Origin: Acidobacteriota bacterium
Lineage (GTDB): Bacteria > Acidobacteriota > Blastocatellia > Chloracidobacteriales > Chloracidobacteriaceae
Reading direction: 5' to 3'
DNA length: 64,000 nt
Assembly (NCBI GenBank): GCA_016208495.1
Contig: JACQXX010000072.1
Span: 1 to 64,000, forward strand
Numbering within the stretch: position 1 is the stretch's first letter; every line of letters starts with the position of its first letter. Positions 119-56,560 of the stretch are shown here, piece after piece. The notes beneath the pieces are model-generated. The model saw only the letters and a list, made by a program, of their open reading frames with translations. It was not told the origin of the DNA and made no database searches. The position numbers were made by a program, and so were the translations under genes.

Positions 119-1096
119 ATGGCCCTAACAACTTATCTTGAAGCAATCCGACAGGGAATTTTTGAAGAAATGCGACGCGACTCCAGTGTGTTTTGTCTTG
201 GGGAAGACGTCGCTGTGTATGGTGGGGCGTTCAAGGTCACGGCTGGACTGCTGGAAGAATTTGGTCCAGACCGGATGATTGACACGCCGATTGCCGAAGC
301 CGCCATTGTCGGCGCCGCTTGTGGCGCCGCCCTGATGGGCATGCGTCCCATTGCTGAAATGCAGTTCATTGACTTCATTTCGTGTGGATTTGACATGCTG
401 ACCAACTATGCGGCGACCAGTCGCTATCGCCAGGGACTGGGGATCCCGATTGTGGTGCGCGGCCCATGTGGCGCCGGTGTGAGAGGTGGCCCGTTCCACT
501 CGCTCAACCCGGAAGCCTTTTTTATGAACACGCCAGGGTTGAAAATGGTGACTCCGGCCACCGCGTATGATGCCAAAGGGCTGATCAAAGCGGCGGTTCG
601 GGATGATGATCCGGTGCTGTTTTTTGAGCACAAATTTTTATACCGGCGCATCAAGGAGGATCTCCCCGAAGAGGAATATATCGTTCCGATTGGGAAAGCG
701 CTGACCCGTCGGGAAGGCGAGGATCTGTCAATCATTACCTATGGATCAATGGTCCACACGGCACTCGAAGCCGCCCAAATCCTGCAGGCAGAAGATGATC
801 TGGAAGTCGAAGTTGTTGATCTCCGGTCATTGCTGCCATATGACAAAGAGGCCATTCTGGCAACAGTCAAGAAGACCAATAAAGTGATTTTGCTGCATGA
901 GGCAACGCTGACCGGCGGGATTGCGGGTGAGTTTGCTGCCTTTATTGCTGAACACGCCTTTGAATATCTTGATGGCCCGATTGTCCGCATTGGGTCAATT
1001 GACACGCCAACACCTTATAGCCCCCCATTGGAAGATTTCTTTTTACCGAATGTTCCAAAAGTGGTGGCGGCAGCCCGAAAGCTGGCAGCTTACTAG
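119..1096 (+). CDS. 2-oxo-acid dehydrogenase E1 component beta subunit (pyruvate/branched-chain keto-acid dehydrogenase E1-beta, transketolase-like)
   Basis: 325-aa ORF. The N-terminal motif LGEDVAVYGGAFKVTAGL...MIDTPIAEAAIVGAA and the C-terminal transketolase-C-like region are typical of E1-beta. The E2 gene follows immediately. The E1-alpha gene would lie upstream, outside the window. Confidence 0.9.
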   Translation: MALTTYLEAIRQGIFEEMRRDSSVFCLGEDVAVYGGAFKVTAGLLEEFGPDRMIDTPIAEAAIVGAACGAALMGMRPIAEMQFIDFISCGFDMLTNYAATSRYRQGLGIPIVVRGPCGAGVRGGPFHSLNPEAFFMNTPGLKMVTPATAYDAKGLIKAAVRDDDPVLFFEHKFLYRRIKEDLPEEEYIVPIGKALTRREGEDLSIITYGSMVHTALEAAQILQAEDDLEVEVVDLRSLLPYDKEAILATVKKTNKVILLHEATLTGGIAGEFAAFIAEHAFEYLDGPIVRIGSIDTPTPYSPPLEDFFLPNVPKVVAAARKLAAY

Positions 1097-1238: not shown

Positions 1239-2648
1239 ATGAGTACTGATGTCGTGATGCCTCAGATGGGCGAATCCATCGCCGAAGGCACGATTGTGAA
1301 GTGGATTAAAAAGATCGGCGACAGCGTCGAGCGCGATGAACCAATTTTTGAAATTTCAACCGATAAAGTTGACGCTGAAATTCCATCCCCGGTGGCGGGT
1401 GTGCTGCTGGAAATCCTGGTGACCGAAGGCCAGACTGTGCCGATTAACACAGTTGTCGCTCGACTCGGTGATGCCTCTGAAGTTGGTGCCGCGGCACCCG
1501 CCGCGGCACCGGAACCGGCCCCAGCGGTGGAACCAGTGGCCGCTCCGGAACCAGCACCAGTTGTGATCGAAGCGCCGCCAGCTCCGGTCGTGGCTGAAGC
1601 GTCACCCGCTGCCCCGGTTGCTGAACCAGCCGAAGAGGAAGAAGATGTCGCCACCAGCGAAGAACAGCGCAAGGTGAAATCCTCACCGCTGGTTCGCAAA
1701 ATTGCGCGTGAACACGGCGTTGATTTGACCCAGGTCACCGGCACCGGTTTGGGGGGGCGGGTGTCAAAAGAAGATATCCTGGCCTTTGTTGAGAGCCGGA
1801 AAGCTCCGGTTGCGGCACCTCCAGCCCCAGCCCCGGTTGTCGTGGCCCCGCCGCCACCCGTCATCGTGGCGCCGCCAGTTGTGGTGGCTCCGCCACCGCC
1901 GCCGCCCGCTCCAGCCGTCGTTTCTACCCCAACGGCTTATGGCGCCAGTGACCGGGTCGAAGTGGTGCCAATGTCACCGATGCGCAAGAAGATCGCCGAG
2001 CATATGATTCACAGCCGGCGGACTTCAGCCCACGTGCAGTCATTCTTTGAAGTTGACATGACGAATGTGGTCAAAATGCGCGAGCGCAATAAAGACAAGT
2101 TTGAGCAGCGCAATGGCACCAAGCTGACCATGACGACCTTTATTGTCAAAGCGGCGGTCGAAGGGTTGAAAGCCTTCCCGATTATGAATTCGTCGGTTGA
2201 CGGCGATTACATCATCTATAAGAAGGACATCAACATCGGGGTGGCCGTGGCGTTGGATTGGGGGTTGATCGTTCCCGTGATCAAACATGCCGAGGAGAAA
2301 AACCTGCTCGGAATTGCCCGCACCCTCAACGATCTGGCTCATCGGGCCCGCAATAAACAACTCAAGCCGGATGAAGTCGCCGGCGGCACCTTTACCATCA
2401 CCAATCCTGGAATTTATGGAAGTTTGATGGGCGCGCCGATTATCAATCAACCGCAGGTGGCCATCATGGGCGTTGGCGCCATCAACAAGCGTCCAGTCGT
2501 GATCAACGACGACGCCATTGTGATTCGGTCAATGGCCTATTTCTCAATTTCGTTTGATCATCGGGTAATTGATGGCGCTGTGGCCGATCAATTTATGGCC
2601 CACGTCAAAAAGACCCTGGAAAGCTTCCAGACAACTGAGCTTGAGTAA
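1239..2648 (+). CDS. Dihydrolipoamide acyltransferase E2 component of a 2-oxo-acid dehydrogenase complex
   Basis: It has a single lipoyl domain (EISTDKVDAEIPSP with the lipoyl-lysine context), an Ala/Pro-rich linker, a peripheral subunit-binding domain (SPLVRKIAREHGVDL) and a catalytic domain with DHRVIDGA. Confidence 0.9.
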   Translation: MSTDVVMPQMGESIAEGTIVKWIKKIGDSVERDEPIFEISTDKVDAEIPSPVAGVLLEILVTEGQTVPINTVVARLGDASEVGAAAPAAAPEPAPAVEPVAAPEPAPVVIEAPPAPVVAEASPAAPVAEPAEEEEDVATSEEQRKVKSSPLVRKIAREHGVDLTQVTGTGLGGRVSKEDILAFVESRKAPVAAPPAPAPVVVAPPPPVIVAPPVVVAPPPPPPAPAVVSTPTAYGASDRVEVVPMSPMRKKIAEHMIHSRRTSAHVQSFFEVDMTNVVKMRERNKDKFEQRNGTKLTMTTFIVKAAVEGLKAFPIMNSSVDGDYIIYKKDINIGVAVALDWGLIVPVIKHAEEKNLLGIARTLNDLAHRARNKQLKPDEVAGGTFTITNPGIYGSLMGAPIINQPQVAIMGVGAINKRPVVINDDAIVIRSMAYFSISFDHRVIDGAVADQFMAHVKKTLESFQTTELE

Positions 2649-2659
2649 CATCCAGCCAG

Positions 2660-2785
2660 GGGCTGAAACCAAGGGATGAGGGATGAAGGATGAGGGATGA
2701 AAGAAAGCAAATTCTTAGCCCTCAGCCCTAATCCCTCAGCCCCAAGTCTTCAGCCCCAAGCCTTCAGCCCCAAGGTCTTCAGCCC
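2660..2785. repeat. Intergenic tandem repeats: GGGATGAG/GGATGAAG octamers followed by a CAGCCCCAAG(N)CTT-type unit
   Basis: Direct reading. The repeats lie inside the annotated N-terminal extension of the 2697 ORF, which is the reason the later ATG at 2850 is preferred as start. Confidence 0.8.
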
Positions 2786-2849
2786 AGACACCGCACGTTT
2801 GATCCTTCCTCGATCCACACCACGCAATTTGTTCCTTCGAAGGTGGCTT

Positions 2850-4382
2850 ATGTCAAAGCGACTTCATCAGGAAAAAGTATCGAAATCGGAATCACCCGCC
2901 AACCGGGTGACGCTGGCGGACTTCGAAGACCAGCTCACCCACCTTGGATTTTCTCCTGACGTGGCGCATCAGGTGTGCCAGTCATTTATGGAAGGACTCC
3001 GGAAGTCGTTGGTGCGGGGTGAGGAAGTGAAGCTCCGAGGATTCGGCAATTTCCGTCGAATGCGCCGAAAGCGAAAGGGAAGTGATCCCACAGCCGACGG
3101 TGGCGTCGCTGATCGCTATGCGTATTCCGTAAAATTTCGACCCAGTCGGCGGCTGATTGGGTTGCTGTATGGGAAGGACATTCCAGAAACCGGGGTTTTT
3201 CTCTCCCTTGACGAAGCCCTGCTCCAGTTTCTGGACCAACCCTCACCGAAACCAGAATCACCGAAACCGCCAAAGAAAAAACCAGTCAAGAAACTGGCGG
3301 CAGTTGACCCGGACAATGTTCCGCAGTTGCTGCCCAACATTACCCTGGTCCCGGCCCACGTCAGCGCACTCAATCGAACCGGCGAGATTGTTTTTGAACT
3401 CCCTTCGGTGGTTGAGTTTCCGGAACCTGATCCGGAGGCGGGGATGCCGCTGATTGAATTTAATCTTCCTCCTGGATTGAGTCCTGAGATTGATACTTCG
3501 TTTGAAGTTGAGTCCACGCTCAGACTTGGATCCCCACCCCCACCGCCAGGTTTTGTCGCCCCATCGTCCCCATTGCCCTCCATCGAAGAATTTACCGAGC
3601 CCGTGGTTGAAGATGACGAAGAACCGCGTGACCGGTCCCGGATGCCCCCCACGCCTGATGATTTGGAAGCCGCGGAAGGGATGGATTTCGAAACCCACTA
3701 TGATTTGGGGATTTCCTACAAAGAAATGGGGTTGTACGATCAATCCGTTCGCGAACTCCATCGGGCGATTCAAAAAGTACCTCCGACTGATGAAGCCGGA
3801 CGATATATGAGCTGTTGCACACTCCTCGGAATGTGTTACCGCGAAAAGCAGATGTATCTTCAGTCGGTGGATTGGTTCCAGCATGCCCTGACGCTGACGA
3901 AACCGGCTGATGCCAGTTATCTGGCCCTGCAGTATGAGCTTGGATTGACCTATGACCTGGCCGGTCAGACGTTTAATGCCCTGGCCGCCTTTTCTGAGGT
4001 GTATGCCCTGGACGTGAATTTTCGCGAGGTGGCCGAGAAGGTCCGATTCCTGCAAAACGAAGTGATTGTGCGGGCCGAGCGGATGCAAAAAATGATCCCG
4101 ATTCATATTCGGGCCATTGCGTCCTCTGGCCAGCGAATTGACGAAGACACCTGGATTGTGAACATCAGCCGGCGTGGCGCCGGATTAAAAACAAATATCG
4201 AGCACGAATCCGGGTCCCTGATCGAAGTTGAATTTACTCAGGCTGGAAAGCGACACCTTGGGAAGGTTGTCTGGTGCGCTCCGTCAAAGGATCAGGACAG
4301 TTCCTATCGCATGGGAATTACCTTGATTACCGACGCAGAACTTGGTGTTGAGGATTGGCCTCGACCGATAGCACAGGGATGA
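2850..4382 (+). CDS. Multidomain protein: N-terminal HU/IHF-like DNA-binding domain, central TPR-like region, C-terminal PilZ-like (c-di-GMP-binding type) domain
   Basis: The HU/IHF signature is EVKLRGFGNFRRMRRKRKG...ADRYAYSVKFRPSRRL (GFGxF arm). TPR-like helices are at DLGISYKEMGLYDQSVRELHRAIQ and downstream. The C-terminus has IHIRA...QRIDEDTWIVNISRRGAGLKT, resembling the PilZ RxxxR...(D/N)xSxxG motif. The start was chosen at ATG 2850 (MSKRL) because the 2697-2849 stretch is built from tandem repeats. Confidence 0.6.
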   Translation: MSKRLHQEKVSKSESPANRVTLADFEDQLTHLGFSPDVAHQVCQSFMEGLRKSLVRGEEVKLRGFGNFRRMRRKRKGSDPTADGGVADRYAYSVKFRPSRRLIGLLYGKDIPETGVFLSLDEALLQFLDQPSPKPESPKPPKKKPVKKLAAVDPDNVPQLLPNITLVPAHVSALNRTGEIVFELPSVVEFPEPDPEAGMPLIEFNLPPGLSPEIDTSFEVESTLRLGSPPPPPGFVAPSSPLPSIEEFTEPVVEDDEEPRDRSRMPPTPDDLEAAEGMDFETHYDLGISYKEMGLYDQSVRELHRAIQKVPPTDEAGRYMSCCTLLGMCYREKQMYLQSVDWFQHALTLTKPADASYLALQYELGLTYDLAGQTFNALAAFSEVYALDVNFREVAEKVRFLQNEVIVRAERMQKMIPIHIRAIASSGQRIDEDTWIVNISRRGAGLKTNIEHESGSLIEVEFTQAGKRHLGKVVWCAPSKDQDSSYRMGITLITDAELGVEDWPRPIAQG

Positions 4383-6862
4383 TTCAATCCAAAATGAATG
4401 GTGACGGTCATTTGGAACAACTTGACGGACAAACATCCGACACTGAGATGACAGTTGGCCAGCGGGCTGGCATGGGGAAGGGTCTGTCCCGAAGTGCGGG
4501 TGATCCATCCCGAAAAAGCAAACAGCAGGCCGATACCCTGGCTTCAATTTTGCTAGTGGTGGTGGTGGCAGTCTTTGTTTTTTTTATCACCCGTCGGCTG
4601 GAAACCATTTTGTCACCACTCGATGATGAATCAATGATTTTGCAATCGGCTCATAGTTTGTGGGGGGCGACTGGTGCCGGTGAGATGGTTTCCAGGCTTG
4701 GTTCCGGGACAAGCGAAAAATTATGGCTGGCGTTGCCGGGGCTATCAGTGTGCCTGGCGGTTTTTGGAAAGATTTGGGGGACCGGTCTTGAGCAAGCCCG
4801 GACCTTTAACGTCGTGGCTGCCTGTCTGGTCCTGACTGCTGTGTTTTTGATTGGACGCAAGCTGCACAGCCGTGCCGCCGGCCTGATTGCTGTTTTTATA
4901 CTGGCGTTTGATGCCAATTTTTTCCACACTGCCCGCTTTCTGACGACCGATTTCCCCACGCTGGCCTGTACCTTAGCTGCCTTTTACTTTCATTTGCGAT
5001 CTCAGTCGGCGGCAAAACCGGAGCGTGAATGGGCATGGGGGATCGGTGCCGGAATTCTCCTCATTCTGGCCCTCCTGATGCAGGTAGGGGCGGTATATGT
5101 CGTGGTGTTGATCCTGGCCTGGTCACTGGTGGAGCAAGGGACTGGGATTTTTCGCAGCCGTTCATTGGGTGCGTTGAGTATGGGGGCGGGAGCACTGGCT
5201 TTGCCGTGCGGCCTTTACCTGTGGGGCCATTATTCCGAATTAACAACCCAGTGGCATCCGGAAACGCTCTATTTCCGTGGGTTTGGAATCACGAATATCT
5301 TCAAAAACCTGTCAGGTGAGCACCTGCGATATGATCAGTGGGAAAGCGGAGTGTTAAAAATTGCCACGGAAGGTTTTTGGGCGGTCGGGTTGTTTCAATT
5401 GTTGATTGTCTTGAGCCTGGCATATTTGACTGTTCGCGTGGTGGTGGCCTTTACCCGCTCTCACGGGTGGCAGGAATTCACGGAAATGTTGCAGAGCATG
5501 ACGCCCGAGGGTCAGACAATGGCCCAGGATCGGTCCCAGTTTTTTCACTTGGGACCCGATGAGCCGCGATACACCGGCTCGTTGCTCCGCTCGATGGCCC
5601 GTCAGGGAGGCTGGCGTCGCAAATTAACCGTTGCCCTTCACGAATTGGAAGAAGATTCCCGCCCGGTGACCACCTGGCTGGATGCACTTGGGGCGCCGTC
5701 TCATCCTGCCTGGCGTGCGTCACGAGCCGGTCTGCTCCTGATCTCAGTGCTCAGCGTGCTCTTCTTTGCCTTATTTGATGCCCAGAAAAGCGCCTTTCAT
5801 CTGCCGTTTATCACCGTGTGGCTGGCCCTCTGTTGCGGCGTCGGGATTGTGGATGGAATTCGATGGGGCGTCGAACAACGGAAACGAAGCGCCCGACGGG
5901 TGCTCATGGGGCTTGGAGCACTGTTGCTGGTGATCATCCCAACGATTGGGTATGTCGGTTCGGCTTCCAGAGTCGTGTGGCGGTTTTACCGCTGGTCACG
6001 AACCTTTGAACCGGCCCCTTACGCAGATGTCACCCAGGTTTTGCGCACGATTGTTCCTCAGAATTTGCTGGTGGTGAGCCGTCCCGTTCACTGGTTATCC
6101 TTTCCGGATAATCCCAATTATGTCTGGGCCAGCAAAAAGGTCTGGAAAGACCAGGATATCACGAGCCTTCCATGTGTGTTGGTGGTGGATGACGAATTTA
6201 TTGAGCGGGAAAATTTTAACCGGCTGTTTGCCAAGCAGGTCCCCAATTTCACCTTGCTGGCCGAACTGAGCGATACGCTGTATGGGAATATCAAGGTGTA
6301 TTACACCGGTCTGGATGGCCGGTTTCAAAATCATACACCGGCGCACTACTACTTTATGGGCGGCTTTCATAAAGGGTATGCCCGAAAGGGATATTACAGC
6401 GAAGAACAGCGCCAGTCGGCCAAGGTGATTTGGCTGGCGGGGCCACCCGAACTGGAACGACTGGCCAGGGCTGGTACTCCGCCGGAAGCCAAGCCACCGT
6501 CGGTTCACCGGGATAACGAGCGGTCGTCTCTGCGCATCGTCACTGATCTATCGCTGTATAACACTCGGGTTCGCATTCCGATCCAAACTCAATTAAAGCC
6601 TTTTACTTTGTATCGGTTGCAAACAGCAGTCCGCGTGGCGGAGGGCGGTTGCCTGGTTGGTCCGCGAGATCAAACCGGACTGTGGCTGGCCGAGCCTCTG
6701 GCTGTTGGACCTGGGGAACAATATGTCCCAGTTGATATTGTGTTTGCCACCAATGCCCGTGGCGATGGCGAAATTGCCGTGAGCAACCGCCGCAACGTGC
6801 CTGGGAAATCATTGATTTACCTCAGTCAGGTTGAAATCAGAGAAATTGGAAAACGACCCTGA
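4379..6862 (+). CDS. Polytopic membrane protein, GT-C-type glycosyltransferase (PMT_2 / ArnT-like family 39/83 fold), with a large C-terminal non-membrane domain
   Basis: There are multiple predicted TM helices. The region LWLALPGLSVCLAVFGKIWGTGLEQARTFNVVAACLVLTAVFLIGRKL...FDANFFHTARFLTTDFP matches the PMT/ArnT N-terminal pattern. The ATG at 4379 overlaps the upstream stop by 4 nt (ATGA), suggesting translational coupling; an alternative start lies at 4355. Confidence 0.6.
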   Translation: MIQSKMNGDGHLEQLDGQTSDTEMTVGQRAGMGKGLSRSAGDPSRKSKQQADTLASILLVVVVAVFVFFITRRLETILSPLDDESMILQSAHSLWGATGAGEMVSRLGSGTSEKLWLALPGLSVCLAVFGKIWGTGLEQARTFNVVAACLVLTAVFLIGRKLHSRAAGLIAVFILAFDANFFHTARFLTTDFPTLACTLAAFYFHLRSQSAAKPEREWAWGIGAGILLILALLMQVGAVYVVVLILAWSLVEQGTGIFRSRSLGALSMGAGALALPCGLYLWGHYSELTTQWHPETLYFRGFGITNIFKNLSGEHLRYDQWESGVLKIATEGFWAVGLFQLLIVLSLAYLTVRVVVAFTRSHGWQEFTEMLQSMTPEGQTMAQDRSQFFHLGPDEPRYTGSLLRSMARQGGWRRKLTVALHELEEDSRPVTTWLDALGAPSHPAWRASRAGLLLISVLSVLFFALFDAQKSAFHLPFITVWLALCCGVGIVDGIRWGVEQRKRSARRVLMGLGALLLVIIPTIGYVGSASRVVWRFYRWSRTFEPAPYADVTQVLRTIVPQNLLVVSRPVHWLSFPDNPNYVWASKKVWKDQDITSLPCVLVVDDEFIERENFNRLFAKQVPNFTLLAELSDTLYGNIKVYYTGLDGRFQNHTPAHYYFMGGFHKGYARKGYYSEEQRQSAKVIWLAGPPELERLARAGTPPEAKPPSVHRDNERSSLRIVTDLSLYNTRVRIPIQTQLKPFTLYRLQTAVRVAEGGCLVGPRDQTGLWLAEPLAVGPGEQYVPVDIVFATNARGDGEIAVSNRRNVPGKSLIYLSQVEIREIGKRP

Positions 6863-7065
6863 TGGATGACAGGGTGACAGGGTGACAGGGTGACAGGGTG
6901 ACAAGGTGACAGAATGACAGGGTGACAAGGTGACAGGGTGACAAGGTGATATTCTTCATTCTTTTGAAAACCCTGAACCCCAAACCCCGAACCCCGAACC
7001 CTGAACCCCGAACCTGAACCCCGAACCCCGAACCCTAAACCCCAAACCCTAAACCCCAAACCCCA
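6863..7065. repeat. Intergenic tandem arrays: GGGTGACA octamer x ~11 (variants AAGGTGACA, GAATGACA), then GAACCCC/AAACCCC heptamer x ~14
   Basis: Direct reading between the stop at 6862 and the start at 7072. Confidence 0.9.
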
Positions 7066-7071
7066 GAGCTT

Positions 7072-8496
7072 ATGACAATCAAATTTGGAACCGACGGCTG
7101 GCGCGGGCGCATCGCGCAGGAATTTACATTTGAAAACGTGGAAATTGTGGCTCAGGCCACGGCTGAGCAGTTTCTGGCGGATAACCCAACCCAATCGGAA
7201 CAACTGGTTTTTGTTGGGCATGACCGCCGATTTTTGGGTGAAGATTTTGCCGCCCGAGTGGCCGAAGTGATGGTCGCGAATGGCTTTCGGGTGAAACTCT
7301 ACGATACTGATGTCCCGACACCAATGGTTTCGTATGATTGCCACCACTTCAATGCTCGGGGTGGTGTGATCATTACGGCAAGTCACAACCCGCCCGAATT
7401 TTCCGGATTTAAAATCAAATTACCGTTTGGCGGATCAGCCTTGCCAGCCTATACCAATCAGGTCGAAGCCCGGCTTGGGGACAACCCTCCAAAACGGGTG
7501 TTGCTGCGCGAAGCCCTGGCCGATGGTCGGATCGAGCGGGTTCCGCCGTCTGAAGCCTATATCAAACGGGTGCCGGAAATTGTTGATCTGGAACAGTTAA
7601 AAGCCCAGGATCTGGAAGTGATTGTTGATTCAATGCATGGCACGGGCGGGCATTATTTGGAAAACTTCCTGAGTGGCGGAAAGCTCCGAGTGACAACCAT
7701 TCGCGGAGACCGGGATGTCTACTTTGGCGGCATCCATCCAGAGCCGATGATGCCCCAACTCCAACCACTGGCCGATGAAATCGTCCGCCGAGGGGCCTTT
7801 GTCGGGCTGGCCACTGATGGAGATGCTGACCGGGTTGGTGCGGTGGATAATCTCGGAAACTATATGAACACCCACCGGTTGCTCGCGATTTTGACCCTCT
7901 ATCTGGTGCGAAAGCGGAAGATGACCGGCGGTGTGGTGCGCACTATTTCACAAAGTGTGATCGTCAAACGGATTGCCGAAAAGTATGGACTGCCGCTCTA
8001 CGAAGTCCCTGTCGGGTTTAAACACGTGGCCGAATTGATGCTCACTCACGACATTTTATGTGGCGGCGAAGAATCCAATGGACTTGGCTGCAAACTCCAC
8101 ATTCCGGAGCGTGATGGAATCTTCAGTGCCTTGTTGTGCTTTGAAGCCATGGTGGCATTTGGCAAAACTCCGTCCGAACTGGTGGCTGATATTCAGCAAG
8201 AATTTGGGACTTTTGAGTATGAGCGCATTGATGTGAAGGTAGACCACATTGAACAAGCCCATCGGATTTTGGCCCTGTTACGCAGCGACCCACCAACCTC
8301 GGTGGCGGGCTTCCCCGTGACTGAAGTCTCGCAACTGGACGGCGTGAAGATGATTTTGGAAGATGAAAGCTGGCTGCTCTTCCGGGGTTCGGGCACCGAG
8401 CCGATGCTGCGGGTTTATAGCGAAGCCACCAGCCGCGAAAAGCTGGAACAACTGCTTGGCTTTGGCCGGGAATTTGTCCGAAATAATCTGAAATAA
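7072..8496 (+). CDS. Phosphoglucomutase/phosphomannomutase (alpha-D-phosphohexomutase family)
   Basis: It has the active-site phosphoserine loop TASHNPPEFSGFK and four-domain length (474 aa), with GLATDGDADR as the metal-binding loop. Confidence 0.9.
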   Translation: MTIKFGTDGWRGRIAQEFTFENVEIVAQATAEQFLADNPTQSEQLVFVGHDRRFLGEDFAARVAEVMVANGFRVKLYDTDVPTPMVSYDCHHFNARGGVIITASHNPPEFSGFKIKLPFGGSALPAYTNQVEARLGDNPPKRVLLREALADGRIERVPPSEAYIKRVPEIVDLEQLKAQDLEVIVDSMHGTGGHYLENFLSGGKLRVTTIRGDRDVYFGGIHPEPMMPQLQPLADEIVRRGAFVGLATDGDADRVGAVDNLGNYMNTHRLLAILTLYLVRKRKMTGGVVRTISQSVIVKRIAEKYGLPLYEVPVGFKHVAELMLTHDILCGGEESNGLGCKLHIPERDGIFSALLCFEAMVAFGKTPSELVADIQQEFGTFEYERIDVKVDHIEQAHRILALLRSDPPTSVAGFPVTEVSQLDGVKMILEDESWLLFRGSGTEPMLRVYSEATSREKLEQLLGFGREFVRNNLK

Positions 8497-8520
8497 AGAA
8501 TGAAAAAAGTGGTTAGGGAG

Positions 8521-8728
8521 GGTTAAAAAACAACTTCCCGATTTTCATTTGGGTCGAAGCCATTTTCTTTTGAGTTCGGTGGTACTTTCCCTGACAAAAG
8601 CTCAGAACCCATTGAAGTCTTTGAATTTCTTTTTCGTGTATTTCGTGTATTTCGTGGTTTCCTGTTCTGAAATTGGATCTCTCCGGGTGACTTTCGATAA
8701 AAACGGGAAGTTGTATTTTTACAGTCCC
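8521..8728. repeat. Small element bounded by inverted copies of a ~28-nt motif (AAAAAACAACTTCCCGATTTTC ... GGGAAGTTGTATTTTTACAGTCCC), with internal TTCGTGTAT tandem copies
   Basis: The motif at 8528-8553 is the reverse complement of the motif at 8699-8728. A third copy follows the stop codon at 25856. Confidence 0.6.
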
Positions 8729-8795
8729 TTAGTGGTGCGAATGAAGGGTTGGCAACAAGGACAGTTTTGAATCCGCGAAGCGGGTGACATTCTTA

Positions 8796-8926
8796 AAGCC
8801 TCGGGTGGAATAAGCGTCAGCGAATGGAATCCGTGGCGTCTATTACCGGGCAACGTACACTGGGCCGGGGAGGCATTCATTATTGCTGATTCTGTTTTCC
8901 ACGGATTCCGCTACGCTCCACCCGAG
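8796..8926. other. Long imperfect hairpin / candidate structured RNA or MITE-like element
   Basis: aaagcctcgggtgga (8796-8810) is the exact reverse complement of tccacccgaggcttt (8912-8926). The inner arm gaatccgtgg/ccacggattc and gcgtcagcg/ccgctacgc extend the stem, enclosing a ~60-nt loop. Confidence 0.5.
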
Positions 8927-9119
8927 GCTTTCACTCTTTCGCCCAGTTCCTGGGCTGAGACCCAAAAACGGCTTCAACTCTTAACTGGCACCACTAACCA
9001 CTAACCACATTCTTCATTTTCTCTATACAAAATTGTATTACTGTGTTATTGTTTCGCGCGCTTAACCAGTAGCGCTCTCAACTGGTTCACATCCCAACAA
9101 TTTCATCGTTCCAGGCCGA

Positions 9120-9253
9120 ACTTTTGTTCTTGTAATACCATTTTGGAATGAAGCGGTCGTATTAGAAAACAGTCAAGTCATTCAATAAAATGAACTTAGT
9201 GAACTACTGACTACTGACTACTGACTACTGACTACAAACTGGTATAAGGAGAC
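9120..9253 (+). promoter_or_regulatory. Conserved gene-upstream element, copy A (ATACCATTTTGGAATGAAGCGGTCGTATTAGAAAACAGTCAAGTCATTCAA...GAACTA[CTGACTA]n CAAACTGGTATAAGGAG)
   Basis: The same 5' and 3' flanks, with a variable number of CTGACTA heptamers, recur at 23085-23200 and 56440-56560. Partial copies are at 1-82 and 47270-47300. All copies are oriented towards the downstream plus-strand gene. Confidence 0.5.
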
Positions 9254-9259
9254 GTGTCT

Positions 9260-9646
9260 ATGCCGCGAATTTGCCATTTTGAAATCCATGCCGAAAACCC
9301 CGAGCGAGCCATCACTTTTTACACCAGCGTGTTTGGCTGGAAATTCCAGCAGTGGGGAGACCAACCGTACTGGTTGATTGAAACCGGACCCAAAGGGCAA
9401 TCAGGCATTGATGGTGGATTACTGCCCCGCCACGGAGCGCCGCCGGTTGGCGGTGAGCCTGTGAATGCCTTTGTCTGCACGGTTGATGTTGATAACCTGG
9501 ATGCGTATAGTGCCAAAGTAACCGAACACGGTGCCACTCTGGCCGTCCCAAAAATGCCGATCCCGACGGTTGGCTGGCTGGCTTATTATAAAGACACCGA
9601 AGGCAATATTTTCGGGATGATGCAATCTGACCCCGAAGCCAAATAA
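9260..9646 (+). CDS. VOC-family protein (glyoxalase/bleomycin-resistance/dioxygenase fold)
   Basis: HFEIHAENPERAITFYTSVFGW...GNIFGMMQ is the typical VOC pattern. ATG 9260 is preceded by AAGGAG 7 nt upstream; the listed GTG at 9254 is a less likely start. Confidence 0.85.
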   Translation: MPRICHFEIHAENPERAITFYTSVFGWKFQQWGDQPYWLIETGPKGQSGIDGGLLPRHGAPPVGGEPVNAFVCTVDVDNLDAYSAKVTEHGATLAVPKMPIPTVGWLAYYKDTEGNIFGMMQSDPEAK

Positions 9647-9741
9647 CCAGGCCAAACCACGGAACCAGGAAAAACTCCAGTTCTTCTTTTGAAAAGAGAG
9701 GGGCTAACCCTGGGAGATGGTGTTTCCTCTGGTTCTTTCTT

Positions 9742-10095
9742 GTGAAGCTGGAAATGTTTGTCTCAGATCCATTGGATATTGTTCCCTCTGGCCAGCGATG
9801 GGCAACTGCCCGGCTGGTCCGCAAAGGATTGTTGTTTCGTGAAGTGCAGGTGATGACCCAGGAAGGCGAATTTTTGGTCACCTATGATGGGCGCGGGGCA
9901 GGATATGAATCAGTCTCCATCAACCAGTGTTTGGCCCAGCGCCAATCTTCGATGGCCTGGTTCGCTCCGGAGTTCTTTTTTACCCTTGGAATGTCAAAAG
10001 CAATGCTCAAGGTGAGGGTCTGGCCATGGCTGGGCTTTCGCTCATTTAAGCTCTGGATTGATGGTGAATGTGTGTATGGGGAAGGCTGGGAGTGA
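9742..10095 (+). CDS. Hypothetical protein (117 aa)
   Basis: The only support is that this ORF fills the gap between the VOC gene and the convergent acyltransferase gene. I see no recognisable motif. Confidence 0.3.
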   Translation: MKLEMFVSDPLDIVPSGQRWATARLVRKGLLFREVQVMTQEGEFLVTYDGRGAGYESVSINQCLAQRQSSMAWFAPEFFFTLGMSKAMLKVRVWPWLGFRSFKLWIDGECVYGEGWE

Positions 10096-10161
10096 CAGGT
10101 GACAAAATGACAAGGTGACAGAATGACACAGTGACTGATTGACAAGGAACGCCGGTTTTCT

Positions 10162-12006
10162 TCATTCAACCACGTTGTCATTTTTTGCACTGTGATACTG
10201 CAAGAATGCCTGGGTCTCTTGTTTTCCAAGATACCGTTCCAGGTTTCGGCGAGGCGTTTGGGTGAGATCAACCAGAATCAATCCATCCAGTGCCTGATGA
10301 AAGCCTGGATCAACATTAAATCCGAGGAGCTTGCCACCCAGCTTTAAATACTGACGGACCAGAACTGGAACTCCCTTGTGATCAGGTTCAAGCTGGCTGA
10401 TAAAGTCTGAAACAACATCAAGTGAACTCCCGATGGACTCAGCCCAAACAGCAAAATTTGAATTGCTGGTGATGGGTCGAAACGGATGTCGCGGCTGTAT
10501 CAGGGGGAAAATTTCTGGGAGGCTTTCATGTCGGGTCAGGTAGTGAACCAGCATCTGGCGCGATATTTCAGTGTAGTCCTGACTCATACTGACAGCGCCA
10601 AGCAGATATTTGTACTGTGGATTCTGGCAAACAAACGCCCCAATCCCTTTCCAGAGCAGGAGTAACGGACTGAACGATTTCTGGTATTCCGGACGGACAA
10701 ACGACCGGCCAAGCTCCAGCGCCTGAGGGAAATGCTGAAACAAGGTTTTTGAAAATCGAAACAGCGTCGAGGTGTACAGGCCCTTCACGCCCTTTGATTC
10801 AAGAATCTGATCAACTCTGGCCAGACGGTACGCGCCAACAACCTCGGATGTCCTTTGATTCCAGATAAATAAATGCGTGTAATGCTGGTCAAACCAATCC
10901 AGATCGAGTGCCAGTCCGGTGCCTTCGCCAGTCAGCCGAAACGTGAGTTCACGCAACCGGCCAATTTCTTGCATCACCCTGGGAATTTGGGCGAAAGGGG
11001 CCACATAGACGGCAAGTTCACCCGATTCGGCCAGCTTTTGGGATGTGTCAAGTTGATCAACTTCCAGGGCAAGCTGATCAGGAGCGAAACACTGGTTGGA
11101 AACTGGCCTGGGCTGGTGCTGAAACAACGACCACTGACTCAGTCCGGTGATCGAAGCCGGACGGAGTTGGTGTTTGAGGTGATAGGTCCGAAATCGAAGG
11201 TATTCAATCAGTTGCGAATCAGTTTCAAATCGGGTCAGGTGGTCAAATCCAATTGGTTTACCAATGGTGAACGATACTTCCGATTTTTGTTTGTTGAGGC
11301 ATTCCCGTGGAAGGAGCAAGGTTCGGAGCCGCGGATGAGCCAATCCAGCCACTTGAAACAGTCCTGAATTGCGGCCTTCAAAAAAAACTGGGACGACTCC
11401 CGCTTCTGATTTGCGAACCAATCGGGCAATGGTTGGGCTCCAGGGCGGGTCTAAAACGGACCGCTGGTCAAGTGTGAGGTGCGAGACTTCACCCGCCGGG
11501 AACACAATCAACGCACCTCCATCCCGGACCCATTGAATCGCCTGCCGAAGCGGCGCCAGGTTGTGACGTGGAGAATCTGTCGATCCAAAAGGATCAACAA
11601 AAATGCAGTGTGACCGAATTGGGGCAAAAGTACTGAGCAATGAATTGGCCATCAATTTGGCATCTGGCCGCTGCTCAAAAACCTGGCTGCACAAAATCAT
11701 GCCTTCAATGACACCAAAGGGATGGTTGGCGACAATCACCAGCGGGCCCGAAGGTAAAACTACAGATTGGGCCGAAGTGGCCTGATACTGAATCTTGAGC
11801 TGTGACAGTGCCTGATCGAAAAAATCTTTGGCGGAAACTTCAGGAGTGGCGGTCAGAATATGCTGGTAGTGATCAAAAATCTGATCCAGCGCAAGGACTT
11901 TTTTAAACAAACCACTCAGTGCGGGGGGCACGAGTGTGGAAACAGGTGGTGAGGGGAAGGCTTCAATTCGGGAAGCAAAGCTTGATGGGCGACTGCTCAC
12001 AGGCAA
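10162..12006 (-). CDS. Bifunctional acyltransferase, OlsF-like: N-terminal lysophospholipid acyltransferase (LPLAT/PlsC-like) domain plus C-terminal OlsB-type N-acyltransferase (hemolysin-like GNAT) domain
   Basis: The N-terminal half has IVANHPFGVIEG (HX4-5D/E-like box) and IVFPAGEVS (FPEG-type box). The C-terminal half has EVVGAYRLARVDQI...GRSFVRPEYQ, typical of the OlsB/Acetyltransf_5 family. Confidence 0.65.
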   Translation of the reverse strand: MPVSSRPSSFASRIEAFPSPPVSTLVPPALSGLFKKVLALDQIFDHYQHILTATPEVSAKDFFDQALSQLKIQYQATSAQSVVLPSGPLVIVANHPFGVIEGMILCSQVFEQRPDAKLMANSLLSTFAPIRSHCIFVDPFGSTDSPRHNLAPLRQAIQWVRDGGALIVFPAGEVSHLTLDQRSVLDPPWSPTIARLVRKSEAGVVPVFFEGRNSGLFQVAGLAHPRLRTLLLPRECLNKQKSEVSFTIGKPIGFDHLTRFETDSQLIEYLRFRTYHLKHQLRPASITGLSQWSLFQHQPRPVSNQCFAPDQLALEVDQLDTSQKLAESGELAVYVAPFAQIPRVMQEIGRLRELTFRLTGEGTGLALDLDWFDQHYTHLFIWNQRTSEVVGAYRLARVDQILESKGVKGLYTSTLFRFSKTLFQHFPQALELGRSFVRPEYQKSFSPLLLLWKGIGAFVCQNPQYKYLLGAVSMSQDYTEISRQMLVHYLTRHESLPEIFPLIQPRHPFRPITSNSNFAVWAESIGSSLDVVSDFISQLEPDHKGVPVLVRQYLKLGGKLLGFNVDPGFHQALDGLILVDLTQTPRRNLERYLGKQETQAFLQYHSAKNDNVVE

Positions 12007-27989: not shown

Positions 27990-28385
27990 GAAGCGAAGTA
28001 GCGAAAAAGAAGCGAGTGGTGAGTAGCGAGTAGCGAGTAGTCAACCGTTGGGTACTTCAAATGGTTTGTTGTTTTGGTGAGCAGGAAGACCCAAATTGAA
28101 TAATTCAGATTTTAGGGAGTCGGATGGAAATATCATACCACCAGGGTTCAGGGTTCAGGGTTCAGGGTTCAGGGTTCAGGGCCAGATACTCCACGTTGAG
28201 CGGTACCCGCCAGTTCCCCCGTCTTCATCTTGAGTGGGATCAGTCAACTCATCGCCGAAACCCTGAACCCTGACCCCTAACCCCGCTGAACCCTGAACCC
28301 TGAACCCGATTTCAGTGGGATTTTATTTTCTTCTGGGTCCCTTACTACTCGCTACTCACTACTCACTACTCACTAGCCTTATTTG
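27990..28385. repeat. Large nested inverted-repeat region built from tandem units: (AGTAGCGAGT)n ... (GGGTTCA)5 ... centre ... (GAACCCT)n ... (ACTACTCGCT/ACTCACTACT)n
   Basis: Direct reading. The outer decamer arrays (28008-28040 and 28340-28380) and the inner heptamer arrays (28143-28180 and 28261-28300) are mutually reverse-complementary. Confidence 0.85.
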
Positions 28386-45289: not shown

Positions 45290-45470
45290 AGAAATAAACT
45301 GGTGCTTGGTTCTTAGTGCCTGGTTTCGAAAACCCGGAACCCGGAACCCGGAACCCGGAACCCGGAACCCGGAACCCGGAACCCGGAACCCGGAACCCGG
45401 AACCCGGAACCCGGAACCCGGAACCCGGAACCCGGTGTATTCTTCATTCTTCATTCCCACACCGTCCGTT
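45226..45470. repeat. Nested inverted repeat: (GAAGAATGAA/GAATTGAGAAT)n ... (GGAACCCG)x14 ... TTCATTCTTCATTC
   Basis: Direct reading. The octamer array spans 45322-45435. Confidence 0.9.
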
Positions 45471-53566: not shown

Positions 53567-53690
53567 GGTTTGGGGTTCAGGGTTCAGGGTTCAGGGTTCA
53601 GGGTTTTCGAAAAATCACCTTGTCACCTTGTCACCTTGTCACTTTGTCACTTTGTCACTTTGTCACTTTGTCACCTGAAACCAGACTCCG
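53567..53690. repeat. (GGGTTCA)x5 followed by (CACCTTGT/CACTTTGT)x8
   Basis: Direct reading. Confidence 0.9.
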
Positions 53691-53917: not shown

Positions 53918-56416
53918 ATGGCGGCCAAAGACGCCCCCCCTCAATCCGGACATGCGCAGCCAATGCGTGCCAACCTGCAAGGTGCTCGCTTGCACCGGGC
54001 CAGTTTTATCGGCGCTAACCTCTCTGGAAGCAACCTGAGTCACGCTGATCTGACCGAAGCCAGGCTCATGAAAGCCAACCTGTCATCAACCAATCTGGCT
54101 GGAACGAATCTCACCCGGGCTGACCTTTCTGAAGCCCAATTTCATGCGGCGATTCTCTCTCAGGTTCAACTGACTGATGCGAATTTAAGTCATACCAATT
54201 TTGACGAAGCGAATCTTTCTGGAGCCGACTTGGCTGGGGCCAAATGTCCAACAGCCATTTTTAACCGGGCACAAATGGGAAAGATCAAGGCCAGTGGCGC
54301 CAATTTTGATCAGGCCCAGTTTGCCGGTACAGTCCTTGATCAGGCTGATTTGCAAGGGGCGAGGCTGACCCAGGCCAACCTGACCCAGGCATCGCTGGAA
54401 GGCGCCGATTGTCAACAGGCCAATTTGTCCGGAGCAAAGCTGGACGGGGCCGCGCTCGCCTATGCTCAGTTCAATCAAGCCAACCTGAGCCAGACCTCGT
54501 TGGTGGGTGCCAATTTGCACAAAGCCAACCTGTCTGAAGCCAATTTCGAAGGCGCTTTGCTCACTCAGGCACGGTTGGATGAAACAAATTTGACCCAGGC
54601 CACGCTGACCCAGGCGACGCTGGATGGCGCCAGTGCCAATCAGTCAATGTTGTCTGGCGCCAACCTGACCGGGGTTAAAGCGACTGGCGCTTCGCTGGTT
54701 GAAGCCATCTTGGAAGGCGCCAACCTGACTGGGGCCACCTTTTCTGAAGCGAACCTTTCAAAGGCGAATCTCAAAGACGTGAATTTGACGGGTGCCACTC
54801 TGGCACGAACCAACTTGACCGGAGCTGATCTGACGCGTGTCATTTTAGCCAATGCCCGGTTGCATTCCGCCAATCTGTCACAGGCCAATTTGCAACAGGT
54901 TCAGGCCGCTGGGGTTGATTTATCCGAGGGGATCCTCAATGAAGCCCAGGCCGCAGGGTCAGTTTTTGACCGTGCGATCATGATCAATGTGCAGGCGGCC
55001 AAAATCAATTTACAGGGCAGTTCACTCCAGCAAGCAAACCTGGAAAAAGTCAATTTTTCACAGGCCCAACTCGGCCAGGCCAATCTGGACGGTGCCAATC
55101 TCAATCAAGCCAATTTGGAAAAGGCACAGGCGCCAAATATTCACTGCACAAGCGCGAAAATGACGGATATGGTGGCCACCGGAGCTGATTTCAGCGGCGG
55201 CAATTTTGAAGGTGCCGACCTGTCAGGTGCTGAATTAGCTGAAATCAACGCTCAAAATGCCTGGATGGCCGAAGCGCAACTCATTTGTGCCAATCTGGCA
55301 GGTGCGAACCTGCAAAATGTGAACTTTGCCGGTGCCGATCTTTCTGGGTGTAGCTTGGTCGGTGCCAATCTGGCGGGTGCGAATTTATCGGGTGCTTCGT
55401 TGGAGAAAGCCGATTTAACTGATTCAAGTTTGGAAAATGCCATTTTGGCCGGAGCCAACCTGGAAGACGCCAATCTGTCTGGGGCCGATATGAACGGGGC
55501 TGATTTCTTTGGCGGGGACGCCACCTGGGAACCGCCACCTCCGCCACCGGCCCCACCGGTTGCTGAAATTCCACCTCCGATGGAGCTTCAGCCTGATGTC
55601 GAGACGGCTCCAACTTTAAGTGGTCAAGAACCGGTCATCCAGGCGGTTGTCGTCGAAGAGGCCCCACTTGATCTTGAACCACCCTCCCTTGAAGAAATGG
55701 AGGTTCAGGCTGTTGAGCCTGCCACTCGGGACATGCACGCTGAAATAAAGCCCGCGGAGCATACCGAACCCAACACCATTGATATTGAGACCAAGGTGAC
55801 TCAGGAAGTTGAAGGGGTTGAAATTGCCATTGACTCGACTTCACCAGTGGTGCCCGAAGCGACTGAAATTTCTTTGGAAAGCGGATTCCAGCCATCAGAA
55901 ACCGAACCGCCCCAACCATTGACCGAATCAGCCGAAACGGTTGAGGTGCGGCTGGTCGAACCAGCGGAAATTGACCTTGGTGCTGAGTTCCAACCCAATC
56001 CGCAACCAGTTGAAGCTCCTTCCCCAACCAAGACAATTCCGCTCAAAGGCGCCACCAATGTCCTGGGCAGCAGCCAGGAAATTGATGAGGAAGACATGAT
56101 TGAGGCGCAATTTGAGCGGATTCAAATGAAAACCACCCCGAAGATCTCCGGCGCCAACCGAAAATTTACCCAGGTTGACATGGATCCGGCGGAGGCAAAG
56201 AAGATTGCGGGTGATTTAATCCGAGTCCTGTTCCAGTCAAACCGTGGGCCAATTCTCGAAGGGCTGCGGCGAGGGACATTTAGCGACGCCATCAAAGCCG
56301 AAATCAGCAAAGCGAAAAAGGAGTATGAAAAGCGCGTTCCGCGTGCCTCTCGTCAGGACTTCTTTAAACAGGAATTGGAAGAACAACTCCGACACATGAA
56401 GGAATCTTCGAGATGA
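53918..56416 (+). CDS. Giant pentapeptide-repeat protein (~90-100 A(N/D)LSx units by eye) with Pro-rich linker, acidic region and a basic C-terminal domain
   Basis: Residues ~20-520 are an uninterrupted pentapeptide array (ANLSGANLSHADLTEARLMKANLSSTNLAGTNLTRADLSEAQF...). It is followed by PPPPPAPP. GGAGGA lies 8 nt upstream. Confidence 0.85.
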   Translation: MAAKDAPPQSGHAQPMRANLQGARLHRASFIGANLSGSNLSHADLTEARLMKANLSSTNLAGTNLTRADLSEAQFHAAILSQVQLTDANLSHTNFDEANLSGADLAGAKCPTAIFNRAQMGKIKASGANFDQAQFAGTVLDQADLQGARLTQANLTQASLEGADCQQANLSGAKLDGAALAYAQFNQANLSQTSLVGANLHKANLSEANFEGALLTQARLDETNLTQATLTQATLDGASANQSMLSGANLTGVKATGASLVEAILEGANLTGATFSEANLSKANLKDVNLTGATLARTNLTGADLTRVILANARLHSANLSQANLQQVQAAGVDLSEGILNEAQAAGSVFDRAIMINVQAAKINLQGSSLQQANLEKVNFSQAQLGQANLDGANLNQANLEKAQAPNIHCTSAKMTDMVATGADFSGGNFEGADLSGAELAEINAQNAWMAEAQLICANLAGANLQNVNFAGADLSGCSLVGANLAGANLSGASLEKADLTDSSLENAILAGANLEDANLSGADMNGADFFGGDATWEPPPPPPAPPVAEIPPPMELQPDVETAPTLSGQEPVIQAVVVEEAPLDLEPPSLEEMEVQAVEPATRDMHAEIKPAEHTEPNTIDIETKVTQEVEGVEIAIDSTSPVVPEATEISLESGFQPSETEPPQPLTESAETVEVRLVEPAEIDLGAEFQPNPQPVEAPSPTKTIPLKGATNVLGSSQEIDEEDMIEAQFERIQMKTTPKISGANRKFTQVDMDPAEAKKIAGDLIRVLFQSNRGPILEGLRRGTFSDAIKAEISKAKKEYEKRVPRASRQDFFKQELEEQLRHMKESSR

Positions 56417-56439: not shown

Positions 56440-56560
56440 AGCGGTCATATTAGAAAATAGTCAAGTTATTGAACCCAGTGAAGGTAGTGAACCATTGACC
56501 ACTGACCACTGACCACTGACTACTGACTACTGACTACTGACTACAAGCTGGCATAACAGA
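56440..56560 (+). promoter_or_regulatory. Conserved gene-upstream element, copy C (AAAGCGGTCATATTAGAAAATAGTCAAGTTATTGAA...(CTGACCA)x3(CTGACTA)x4 CAAGCTGGCATAAC)
   Basis: It aligns with copies A and B. The heptamer array here is 7 units, including CTGACCA variants. Confidence 0.5.

Follow-up and report, generated by a model that had tools for sequence, protein, structure and literature searches.

A rare HU-TPR-PilZ protein encoded beside a GT-C glycosyltransferase in an acidobacterium: a candidate nucleoid-associated signaling adaptor

Several described proteins bring cyclic di-GMP (c-di-GMP) signaling, or a partner-binding module, close to nucleic acids or the nucleoid. PlzA from Borrelia binds DNA and RNA in a c-di-GMP-dependent manner (PMC9915621), and CdbS, a PilZ protein from Myxococcus xanthus, affects chromosome organization (PMC7156744, PMC10313047). 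Bacterial HU-CCDC81 proteins have been proposed to be nucleoid tethers (PMC5499826). In M. xanthus SgmX, moreover, three C-terminal TPRs bind MglA-GTP (PMC7668184, PMC9811614, PMC11580455). Here, we describe a gene from an Acidobacteriota bacterium (contig JACQXX010000072.1, assembly GCA_016208495.1) whose product, termed HU-TPR-PilZ below, joins an HU/IHF-like domain, a TPR module, and a PilZ domain in one chain. The gene lies in positions 1 to 64,000 of the forward strand, a stretch that we call the window, and it is followed by a gene for a GT-C membrane glycosyltransferase.

We propose, with a probability of about 0.5, that HU-TPR-PilZ is a nucleoid-associated signaling adaptor inserted into a conserved block of genes for the E1-beta and E2 subunits of a 2-oxoacid dehydrogenase and for the GT-C enzyme. 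Its domain architecture is new but built from known modules, and it defines a very rare, uncharacterized family. The gene and the parts of its product are as follows.

2840-2846, forward strand: Shine-Dalgarno-like AAGGTGG, 3 nucleotides upstream of the ATG at 2850
2850-4382, forward strand: HU-TPR-PilZ gene, a single open reading frame of 510 amino acids plus stop
2901-3164, forward strand: HU/IHF-like domain, residues 18-105, with GFGNF at 3039-3053
3165-3653, forward strand: linker, residues 106-268 (163 residues, 20% proline, net charge -15, predicted to be disordered)
3384-3404, forward strand: linker motif EIVFELP, residues 179-185
3447-3473, forward strand: linker motif PLIEFNLPP, residues 200-208
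3654-4064, forward strand: module of three TPRs, residues 269-405, with homology to the module at the extreme C terminus of SgmX-like proteins
4065-4379, forward strand: PilZ beta-barrel domain, residues 406-510
4071-4091, forward strand: RAERMQK, an R-x-E-R motif at the TPR/PilZ junction, where RxxxR canonically sits
4161-4178, forward strand: NISRRG (N438-I-S-R-R-G443), an intact [D/N]hSxxG motif

HU-TPR-PilZ is a real, constrained gene. Uninterrupted three-domain reading frames occur in independent assemblies at 91 to 92% identity (L003, L004, and L005; L numbers denote compared loci and P numbers denote homologous proteins), in a Blastocatellia metagenome-assembled genome at 54% (L001/L006), and in L002 at 40%. 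These three acidobacterial lineages, at 92%, 54%, and 40% identity to the window protein, are the window clade. Compared with the ~92% relatives, the window gene has a synonymous divergence (dS) of about 0.85 and a ratio of nonsynonymous to synonymous rates (dN/dS) of 0.03 to 0.09 in each of four segments, the linker included; the value for the TPR module is 0.03. In the 54% comparison, identity is 66 to 69% over the TPR and PilZ parts and 43 to 44% over the HU domain and linker, so that constraint is strongest on the C-terminal TPR-PilZ unit. A longer reading frame starting at 2697 was rejected because the orthologs begin at the MSKR position and the Shine-Dalgarno-like sequence precedes 2850. 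The protein has no hydrophobic segment and is thus cytoplasmic.

The original prediction had read HU/IHF, TPR, PilZ, and GT-C domains from this DNA, and profile searches bore out all four: the window protein passes the curated Pfam cutoffs for its three domain types, and the neighboring enzyme matches PMT_2 (48.3 bits) and PMT (34.4 bits). The HU region (residues 30 to 102) matches Bac_DNA_binding (PF00216) with 33.5 bits against a gathering cutoff of 22.4, as do six relatives above that cutoff, and a phmmer search of Protein Data Bank (PDB) sequences matched IHF-alpha at an E value of about 1e-7. The GFGxF motif, present as GFGNF at residues 64 to 68, leads into the beta-arm RRMRRKRKGSDP, whose proline pairs with the arm proline of IHF-alpha in the phmmer alignment. 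This arm is strongly basic (RRMRRKRK..DP..), with a net charge of +8. DNA binding by HU/IHF domains shows little sequence specificity; by its sequence, the HU domain of HU-TPR-PilZ would form dimers and bind or bend DNA.

Within the linker, two similar motifs, E[IM]VFELP and P[LV][IL]EFx[LVF]P, are kept in all three acidobacterial lineages, while the rest of the linker is variable. They may be short linear motifs, for instance, peptide ligands for the TPR domain.

The TPR module, which the original prediction had recognized only as TPR helices, proved to be of one specific kind: the three-TPR module found at the C terminus of SgmX-like proteins. Pfam TPR_2 and TPR_12 match at residues 281 to 387, and residues 279 to 405 map to positions 894 to 1017 of the 1,065-position NCBIfam SgmX model (NF052243) with an E value of 4.5e-18 and 65 bits, compared with 38.6 bits for the next-best TPR family. 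The protein is not a full-length SgmX, as the 65 bits fall far below the family cutoff of 1800 and positions 894 to 1017 alone are matched. All non-family homologs found are TPR proteins of 550 to 1,000 amino acids in which the module forms the extreme C terminus, and these match the SgmX model N-terminally too (699 bits for a protein from Anaeromyxobacteraceae and 249 bits for one from Blastocatellia). Direct alignments to the C termini of SgmX-like proteins gave 34 to 36% identity over 123 to 132 residues. By analogy, this relationship suggests a protein, perhaps a small GTPase, as the binding partner of the window module.

Among the compared loci, L007 (positions 7391 to 10417), from a Blastocatellia metagenome-assembled genome, encodes a 1,008-amino-acid SgmX-like TPR protein with the same C-terminal module and a proline-rich repeat region. 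L013 (7813 to 10531), from KSB3/UASB14 of the candidate division KSB3, encodes a short form of 557 amino acids with the same module, located between a 163-amino-acid reading frame that looks bactofilin-like by eye and a gene that, also by eye, resembles those for EngA/Der-like GTPases.

The PilZ call was likewise upheld, since Pfam PilZ (PF07238) matches residues 410 to 492 with 25.3 bits against a gathering cutoff of 22.5. An AlphaFold model of residues 400 to 510, built on a nine-sequence alignment with a mean predicted local distance difference test (pLDDT) score of 75, is a six-stranded barrel, and its best Foldseek matches were BcsA, VCA0042/PlzD, MrkH, PP4397, YcgR, and PlzA, with the PilZ domains of BcsA and Alg44 among the top structural matches. 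By sequence, no solved PilZ chain was retrieved with phmmer of the whole protein against the PDB or with a family profile of the PilZ region. Across nine family members, the S, R, G, and A of the NISRRGA region are invariant (9/9) and the hydrophobic h is kept. When the family profile was compared by hhalign with an approximate MapZ sequence, only the DxSxxG region aligned, tentatively pairing NISRRG with DVSLHG. Where RxxxR would stand, R-x-E-R (R408, E410, and R411 in the window) is invariant in the family; at position i+4, the window clade has M, and the family as a whole has M, K, R, L, or I. Canonical RGERR occurs in P0052 only. The original prediction was correct that the RxxxR half looks degenerate. 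A survey of PilZ domains indicates that both motifs serve c-di-GMP binding and that domains without them do not bind (10.1101/814665). Since the window protein keeps one motif perfectly and, instead of the other, carries two strictly conserved arginines at the same junction, c-di-GMP binding is plausible from the sequence.

The rarity of the family is evidenced by an exhaustive phmmer search of the PilZ region against 1.84 billion cluster representatives, which returned 20 matches at an E value of <=1e-3 and 8 at <=1e-10; the three-domain architecture accounts for about nine 50%-identity clusters among these representatives. The best matches besides the three window-clade members were P0047 to P0052. 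P0048, P0049, P0050, and P0052 are full-length proteins with about 30% identity to the window protein, an HU domain above the cutoff, TPR matches, and a C-terminal PilZ-type region, although the Pfam PilZ model itself passes in P0048 and P0050 only. For P0068, a protein of 417 amino acids from the P0051 cluster, the precomputed matches include HU-type and TPR domains. A metagenome scan with clade-specific PilZ patterns gave no matches, a second scan with a broader PilZ alignment yielded only L034 and L035, whose encoded proteins have the HU-TPR-PilZ layout by sequence, and a third homolog search with the family alignment found no further full-architecture members. The PilZ survey (10.1101/814665) does not mention fusions to TPR or DNA-binding domains, the HU superfamily survey (PMC5499826) does not mention PilZ or TPR, and no paper turned up in a literature search that combined PilZ with Bac_DNA_binding.

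These ~30%-identity homologs constitute a second, distant clade, whose loci have GC contents of mostly 34 to 43% (55% in L028). Here the HU-TPR-PilZ gene lies directly downstream of a PP2C-type phosphatase gene in L028, L033, L034, and L035 and next to or near a Ser/Thr kinase gene in L031, L032, L034, and L035. These neighbors suggest that the second clade is controlled by Ser/Thr phosphorylation. A GT-C neighbor was found at none of the evaluable second-clade loci. The second-clade phosphatases are of the PP2C/SpoIIE type, sometimes with GAF or FHA domains. In L034 and L035, the second-clade arrangement was noted at 4884 to 7303 and at 4854 to 7276, respectively.

The architecture, fold, motifs, conservation, and synteny of HU-TPR-PilZ are observed, and its binding to DNA, to a partner, and to a ligand is inferred, as is the direction of regulation. 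In the adaptor reading, HU-TPR-PilZ would be a cytoplasmic, dimeric, nucleoid-associated protein whose HU/IHF-like domain, with its very basic arm, keeps it on DNA. The proline-rich disordered linker of about 160 residues would be the tether for a rigid TPR3-PilZ unit, the conserved working end. The TPR module would be a copy of the partner-binding C-terminal module of SgmX-like proteins, for which MglA-GTP is the partner in Myxococcus. The PilZ barrel, joined to it via the invariant RxER junction, would sense a ligand, most likely c-di-GMP, though this is not assured, or a second partner, and sensing would alter which molecules bind to the TPR module or to the HU arm. A signaling state could in this way be linked to the chromosome, and the direction of regulation might be either recruitment of a partner to the nucleoid or release of DNA. 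The GT-C enzyme would be a probable co-transcribed neighbor in the window lineage rather than the defining partner.

Several observations count against this proposal. The canonical RxxxR before strand beta-1 is absent (the window sequence is R408-A-E-R411-M), and c-di-GMP binding may for that reason have been lost. The HU arm is variable in length or shortened across the distant members and nearly missing in P0050, so DNA binding is perhaps not the conserved function of the HU domain, which could serve mainly in dimerization. In the full-length AlphaFold2 model, with a mean pLDDT of 50, the HU part has low confidence, and the model is too poor for judging that domain or the packing of domains. 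The equivalence of the TPR module to TPR12-14 of SgmX is drawn from position in the model, not from a residue map. A tblastn search with an approximate MglA query gave no match in the window or in the 35 loci, a result that says nothing about whole genomes, and no type IV pilus or c-di-GMP-metabolizing gene was found in the window or the compared loci.

The alternative that survives best, which we regard as possible but doubtful, casts the PilZ domain as a degenerate, nucleotide-blind protein-interaction module, similar to Xanthomonas PilZ or Myxococcus PlpA, within a signal-independent scaffold that is perhaps regulated by Ser/Thr phosphorylation. Such a domain is compatible with an adaptor role. 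The missing RxxxR in the window clade, the variable last position of this motif across the family, the failure of sequence searches to reach a solved PilZ chain, the consistent linkage of the distant clade to PP2C phosphatase and Ser/Thr kinase genes, and the lack of binding by surveyed PilZ domains without their motifs (10.1101/814665) all fit a nucleotide-blind domain. Nevertheless, nonbinding PilZ domains usually lose both motifs, and here [D/N]hSxxG is strictly invariant, its h included. In addition, the two invariant arginines of RxER stand at the N-terminal junction, the site of the ligand-wrapping loop, and the RGERR of P0052 shows the canonical form in a distant member.

Next in order comes the possibility, unlikely in our view, that HU-TPR-PilZ responds to c-di-GMP and serves to regulate specifically the GT-C enzyme encoded next to it, either by binding a cytoplasmic loop, and so gating the enzyme or tethering it to the nucleoid, or by acting as an operon transcription factor like MrkH. 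The features that bear on it are these.

119-1096, forward strand: E1-beta of a 2-oxoacid dehydrogenase
1239-2648, forward strand: E2 of a 2-oxoacid dehydrogenase
4379-4382, forward strand: ATGA stop/start overlap of the HU-TPR-PilZ and GT-C genes
4379-6862, forward strand: GT-C (PMT_2/PMT, GT39-like) membrane glycosyltransferase, 827 amino acids

The enzyme has about 10 transmembrane or hydrophobic segments in residues 53 to 526, followed by a conserved soluble C-terminal domain of about 300 amino acids. The acidic motif in its first extracytoplasmic loop is PLDDE, of which E84 is invariant and D83 is not, and a strongly conserved hydrophilic loop of about 90 amino acids (WLxxLGAPSHPxWR) could be a cytoplasmic docking site. 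As predicted originally, the stop codon of HU-TPR-PilZ overlaps the GT-C start; the overlap and the ATGs at 4379 and 4394 are kept in the ~90% relatives only, and the overlap is lost in L001 and L002, where the two genes are separated by at least 258 nucleotides and by 28 nucleotides, respectively. Co-transcription in the window lineage is likely. The order E2, HU-TPR-PilZ, GT-C recurs in all three window-clade lineages, with the GT-C gene immediately downstream: L003 and L004 have the same arrangement as the window, the L001 GT-C protein is 56% identical to that of the window, and L002 is flanked by an E2 gene (by Pfam) and by a GT-C gene whose product is 45% identical at the N terminus. This adjacency and the overlap kept in the ~90% relatives speak for a partnership, as do the existence of PilZ transcription factors and the presence of MrkH structures among the fold matches, and a lineage-specific functional link is conceivable.

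However, the linkage breaks in both directions. GT-C orthologs lie directly after E2 with no HU-TPR-PilZ between them in Chloracidobacterium sp. CP072648 and related assemblies (L023 to L026; 40% identity) and in L027, a JGI contig (44%), and they retain every conserved feature of the window enzyme, the WLxxLGAPSHPxWR loop included; the distant HU-TPR-PilZ members, in turn, sit by PP2C and kinase genes. The co-conservation with GT-C that the original prediction proposed to check holds for the three window-clade lineages and fails beyond them. With E2 upstream in each of these lineages, the adjacency may go back to one inherited event instead of giving independent evidence of coupling; the simplest history suggested by these sequences is one insertion of HU-TPR-PilZ into a pre-existing E1-beta-E2-GT-C block. 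As the position before GT-C is confined to one small acidobacterial lineage, it probably does not explain the function of the protein.

Mechanism argues in the same direction. The known PilZ-gated synthases, BcsA and Alg8/Alg44, are cytoplasm-facing GT-2 enzymes, whereas GT-C enzymes use lipid-linked donors and catalyze at the periplasmic or outer face of the membrane. Also, binding of the HU/IHF type suits an operon-specific transcription factor poorly. A dedicated partnership between HU-TPR-PilZ and the GT-C enzyme is not supported, and the control of, or tethering to, a glycosyltransferase that had been suggested earlier finds little backing in these comparisons. A role in glycosylation or in exopolysaccharide gating is unlikely, and "PilZ next to a glycosyltransferase" does not here denote a gating system of the BcsA/Alg44 kind.

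The GT-C family itself comprises four 90%-identity clusters in 5.8 billion proteins, and its C-terminal domain is distinctive, highly conserved, and has no Pfam match. E1-beta and E2 are the conserved upstream partners of its gene in all lineages, whether HU-TPR-PilZ lies in between or not, and E2 precedes the gene wherever the upstream flank is readable. In L023 (10557 to 13539), the region downstream of GT-C encodes a convergent 526-amino-acid HD/HD_5 protein and a stand-alone response regulator; by its sequence, the HD/HD_5 protein is possibly HD-GYP-like and would be a possible c-di-GMP-related neighbor of the GT-C family.

We also entertain, as a quite improbable extension of the adaptor reading, that HU-TPR-PilZ proteins form a hitherto unrecognized class, namely, nucleoid-anchored integrators of polarity or second-messenger signals. 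The TPR module would take an MglA-like small GTPase or another polarity factor, PilZ would read c-di-GMP via a noncanonical RxER/[D/N]hSxxG site, and HU would couple both to chromosome positioning or compaction; Ser/Thr phosphorylation in the second clade would be a third input, and the GT-C protein of the window a possible envelope anchor. Finally, the fusion and the neighborhood could be incidental, and the product an ordinary HU-type nucleoid protein that carries an accessory tail and plays no role in signaling. This reading agrees with the NCBI label of one ortholog ("HU family DNA-binding protein") but is highly improbable, given that the tail is more conserved than the HU domain, that unrelated hosts of low GC content have the three domains in the same order at ~30% identity, and that the TPR module has a dN/dS of 0.03.

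The surroundings of the two genes include the following.

2649-2849, forward strand: spacer between E2 and HU-TPR-PilZ with opposed heptamer arrays (four AGGGATG units against AGCCCTC/ATCCCTC-type units)
7072-8496, downstream of GT-C: phosphogluco/phosphomannomutase

Beyond the mutase, whose adjacency to GT-C is not kept in L001, lie genes for a glyoxalase-fold protein and an acyltransferase-GNAT protein. In the remaining ~55 kb of the window, no GGDEF/EAL/HD-GYP, type IV pilus, MglA/B, PP2C, or Ser/Thr kinase gene was found. The spacer at 2649 to 2849 folds as a long hairpin (-70.7 kcal/mol, z score of -3.8, with 0 of 200 shuffles folding as well), which may be a terminator or insulator after E2 that sets the HU-TPR-PilZ/GT-C pair apart; the downstream spacer at 6863 to 7071 shows no folding excess (z score of -0.9). 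A scan of the spacers for sigma-70 promoters and intrinsic terminators did not exceed shuffle expectation, and no c-di-GMP riboswitch or other Rfam element was found around the two genes. A weak match to a microRNA model was discarded as a chance product of the repeat hairpin.

Nearly every spacer in the window carries tandem arrays of 7- or 8-nucleotide units (CTGACTA, 11.7 copies; TGACAGGG, 10; AACCCCG, 14; AACCCGG, 15; and others), for example, at 1-82, 2672-2786, 6867-7064, 9203-9235, 28142-28181, 45331-45435, 53615-53676, and 56496-56544, and identical units recur in both orientations at different loci. In the ~92% relative L004, the spacer arrays (235-326, 3025-3078, 5686-5980, and 10118-10188) differ from those of the window in units and copy numbers, and the arrays are therefore hypervariable. 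They resemble the short tandemly repeated repetitive (STRR) heptamers of cyanobacteria, yet the host is apparently an acidobacterium. Further along, positions 53918 to 56416 encode an 832-amino-acid protein composed almost wholly of pentapeptide repeats (Pfam Pentapeptide, 367 bits in 15 stretches).

The general importance of HU-TPR-PilZ is limited because so small a family occurs in uncultured lineages only. If the adaptor reading is true, however, the permanent joining of PilZ to HU/IHF by way of an SgmX-type partner-binding module would open a new modular route from second-messenger or polarity signaling to the nucleoid, and the "MglA-binding" TPR module of SgmX would be a mobile cassette reused outside pilus regulation. 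The noncanonical yet invariant RxER also provides a clean test case for what PilZ domains require to bind c-di-GMP.

Compared with known systems, HU-TPR-PilZ shares with SgmX and SgmX-like proteins the motif DFETHYxLGxxYKEM...EVYALDxxFR and 34 to 45% identity in the module. In SgmX, about 11 upstream TPRs, which activate the pilus and bind FrzS, are present that the window protein lacks; in SgmX-like proteins, the module ends the chain, whereas here HU and the linker precede it and PilZ follows. The HU-CCDC81 proteins follow the same design: HU at the N terminus, then a long disordered stretch, and at the far end a module that binds a partner. P0049 and P0068 show weak matches to a Pfam HU-CCDC81 model. 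Those proteins, however, contain a transmembrane segment and a peptidoglycan-binding SPOR/LysM domain, neither of which occurs in the window protein, whose distal module is a cytoplasmic TPR-PilZ unit.

Known links between c-di-GMP and the chromosome use other folds, as in CdbA (ribbon-helix-helix), BldD, and PlzA and MrkH, in which PilZ itself binds nucleic acid. CdbA/CdbS comes near in concept, with c-di-GMP acting on a nucleoid-associated protein (PMC7156744, PMC10313047), but CdbA binds c-di-GMP directly, CdbS is a stand-alone PilZ protein, and neither involves HU, a TPR module, or a fusion. MrkH of Klebsiella and PlzA, both among the structural matches, also place PilZ in a DNA-binding protein; they bind DNA by a PilZ/PilZN tandem, in contrast to the separate HU/IHF domain across a long disordered linker and the noncanonical RxxxR found here. 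BcsA and Alg44/Alg8, finally, have PilZ beside a glycosyltransferase, as in the window, but there PilZ is fused to or partners a processive GT-2 enzyme, and the neighbor here is a GT-C (PMT_2) enzyme with lineage-specific linkage. HU-TPR-PilZ resembles the HU-CCDC81, CdbA/CdbS, MrkH, and PlzA systems and is a member of none of them.

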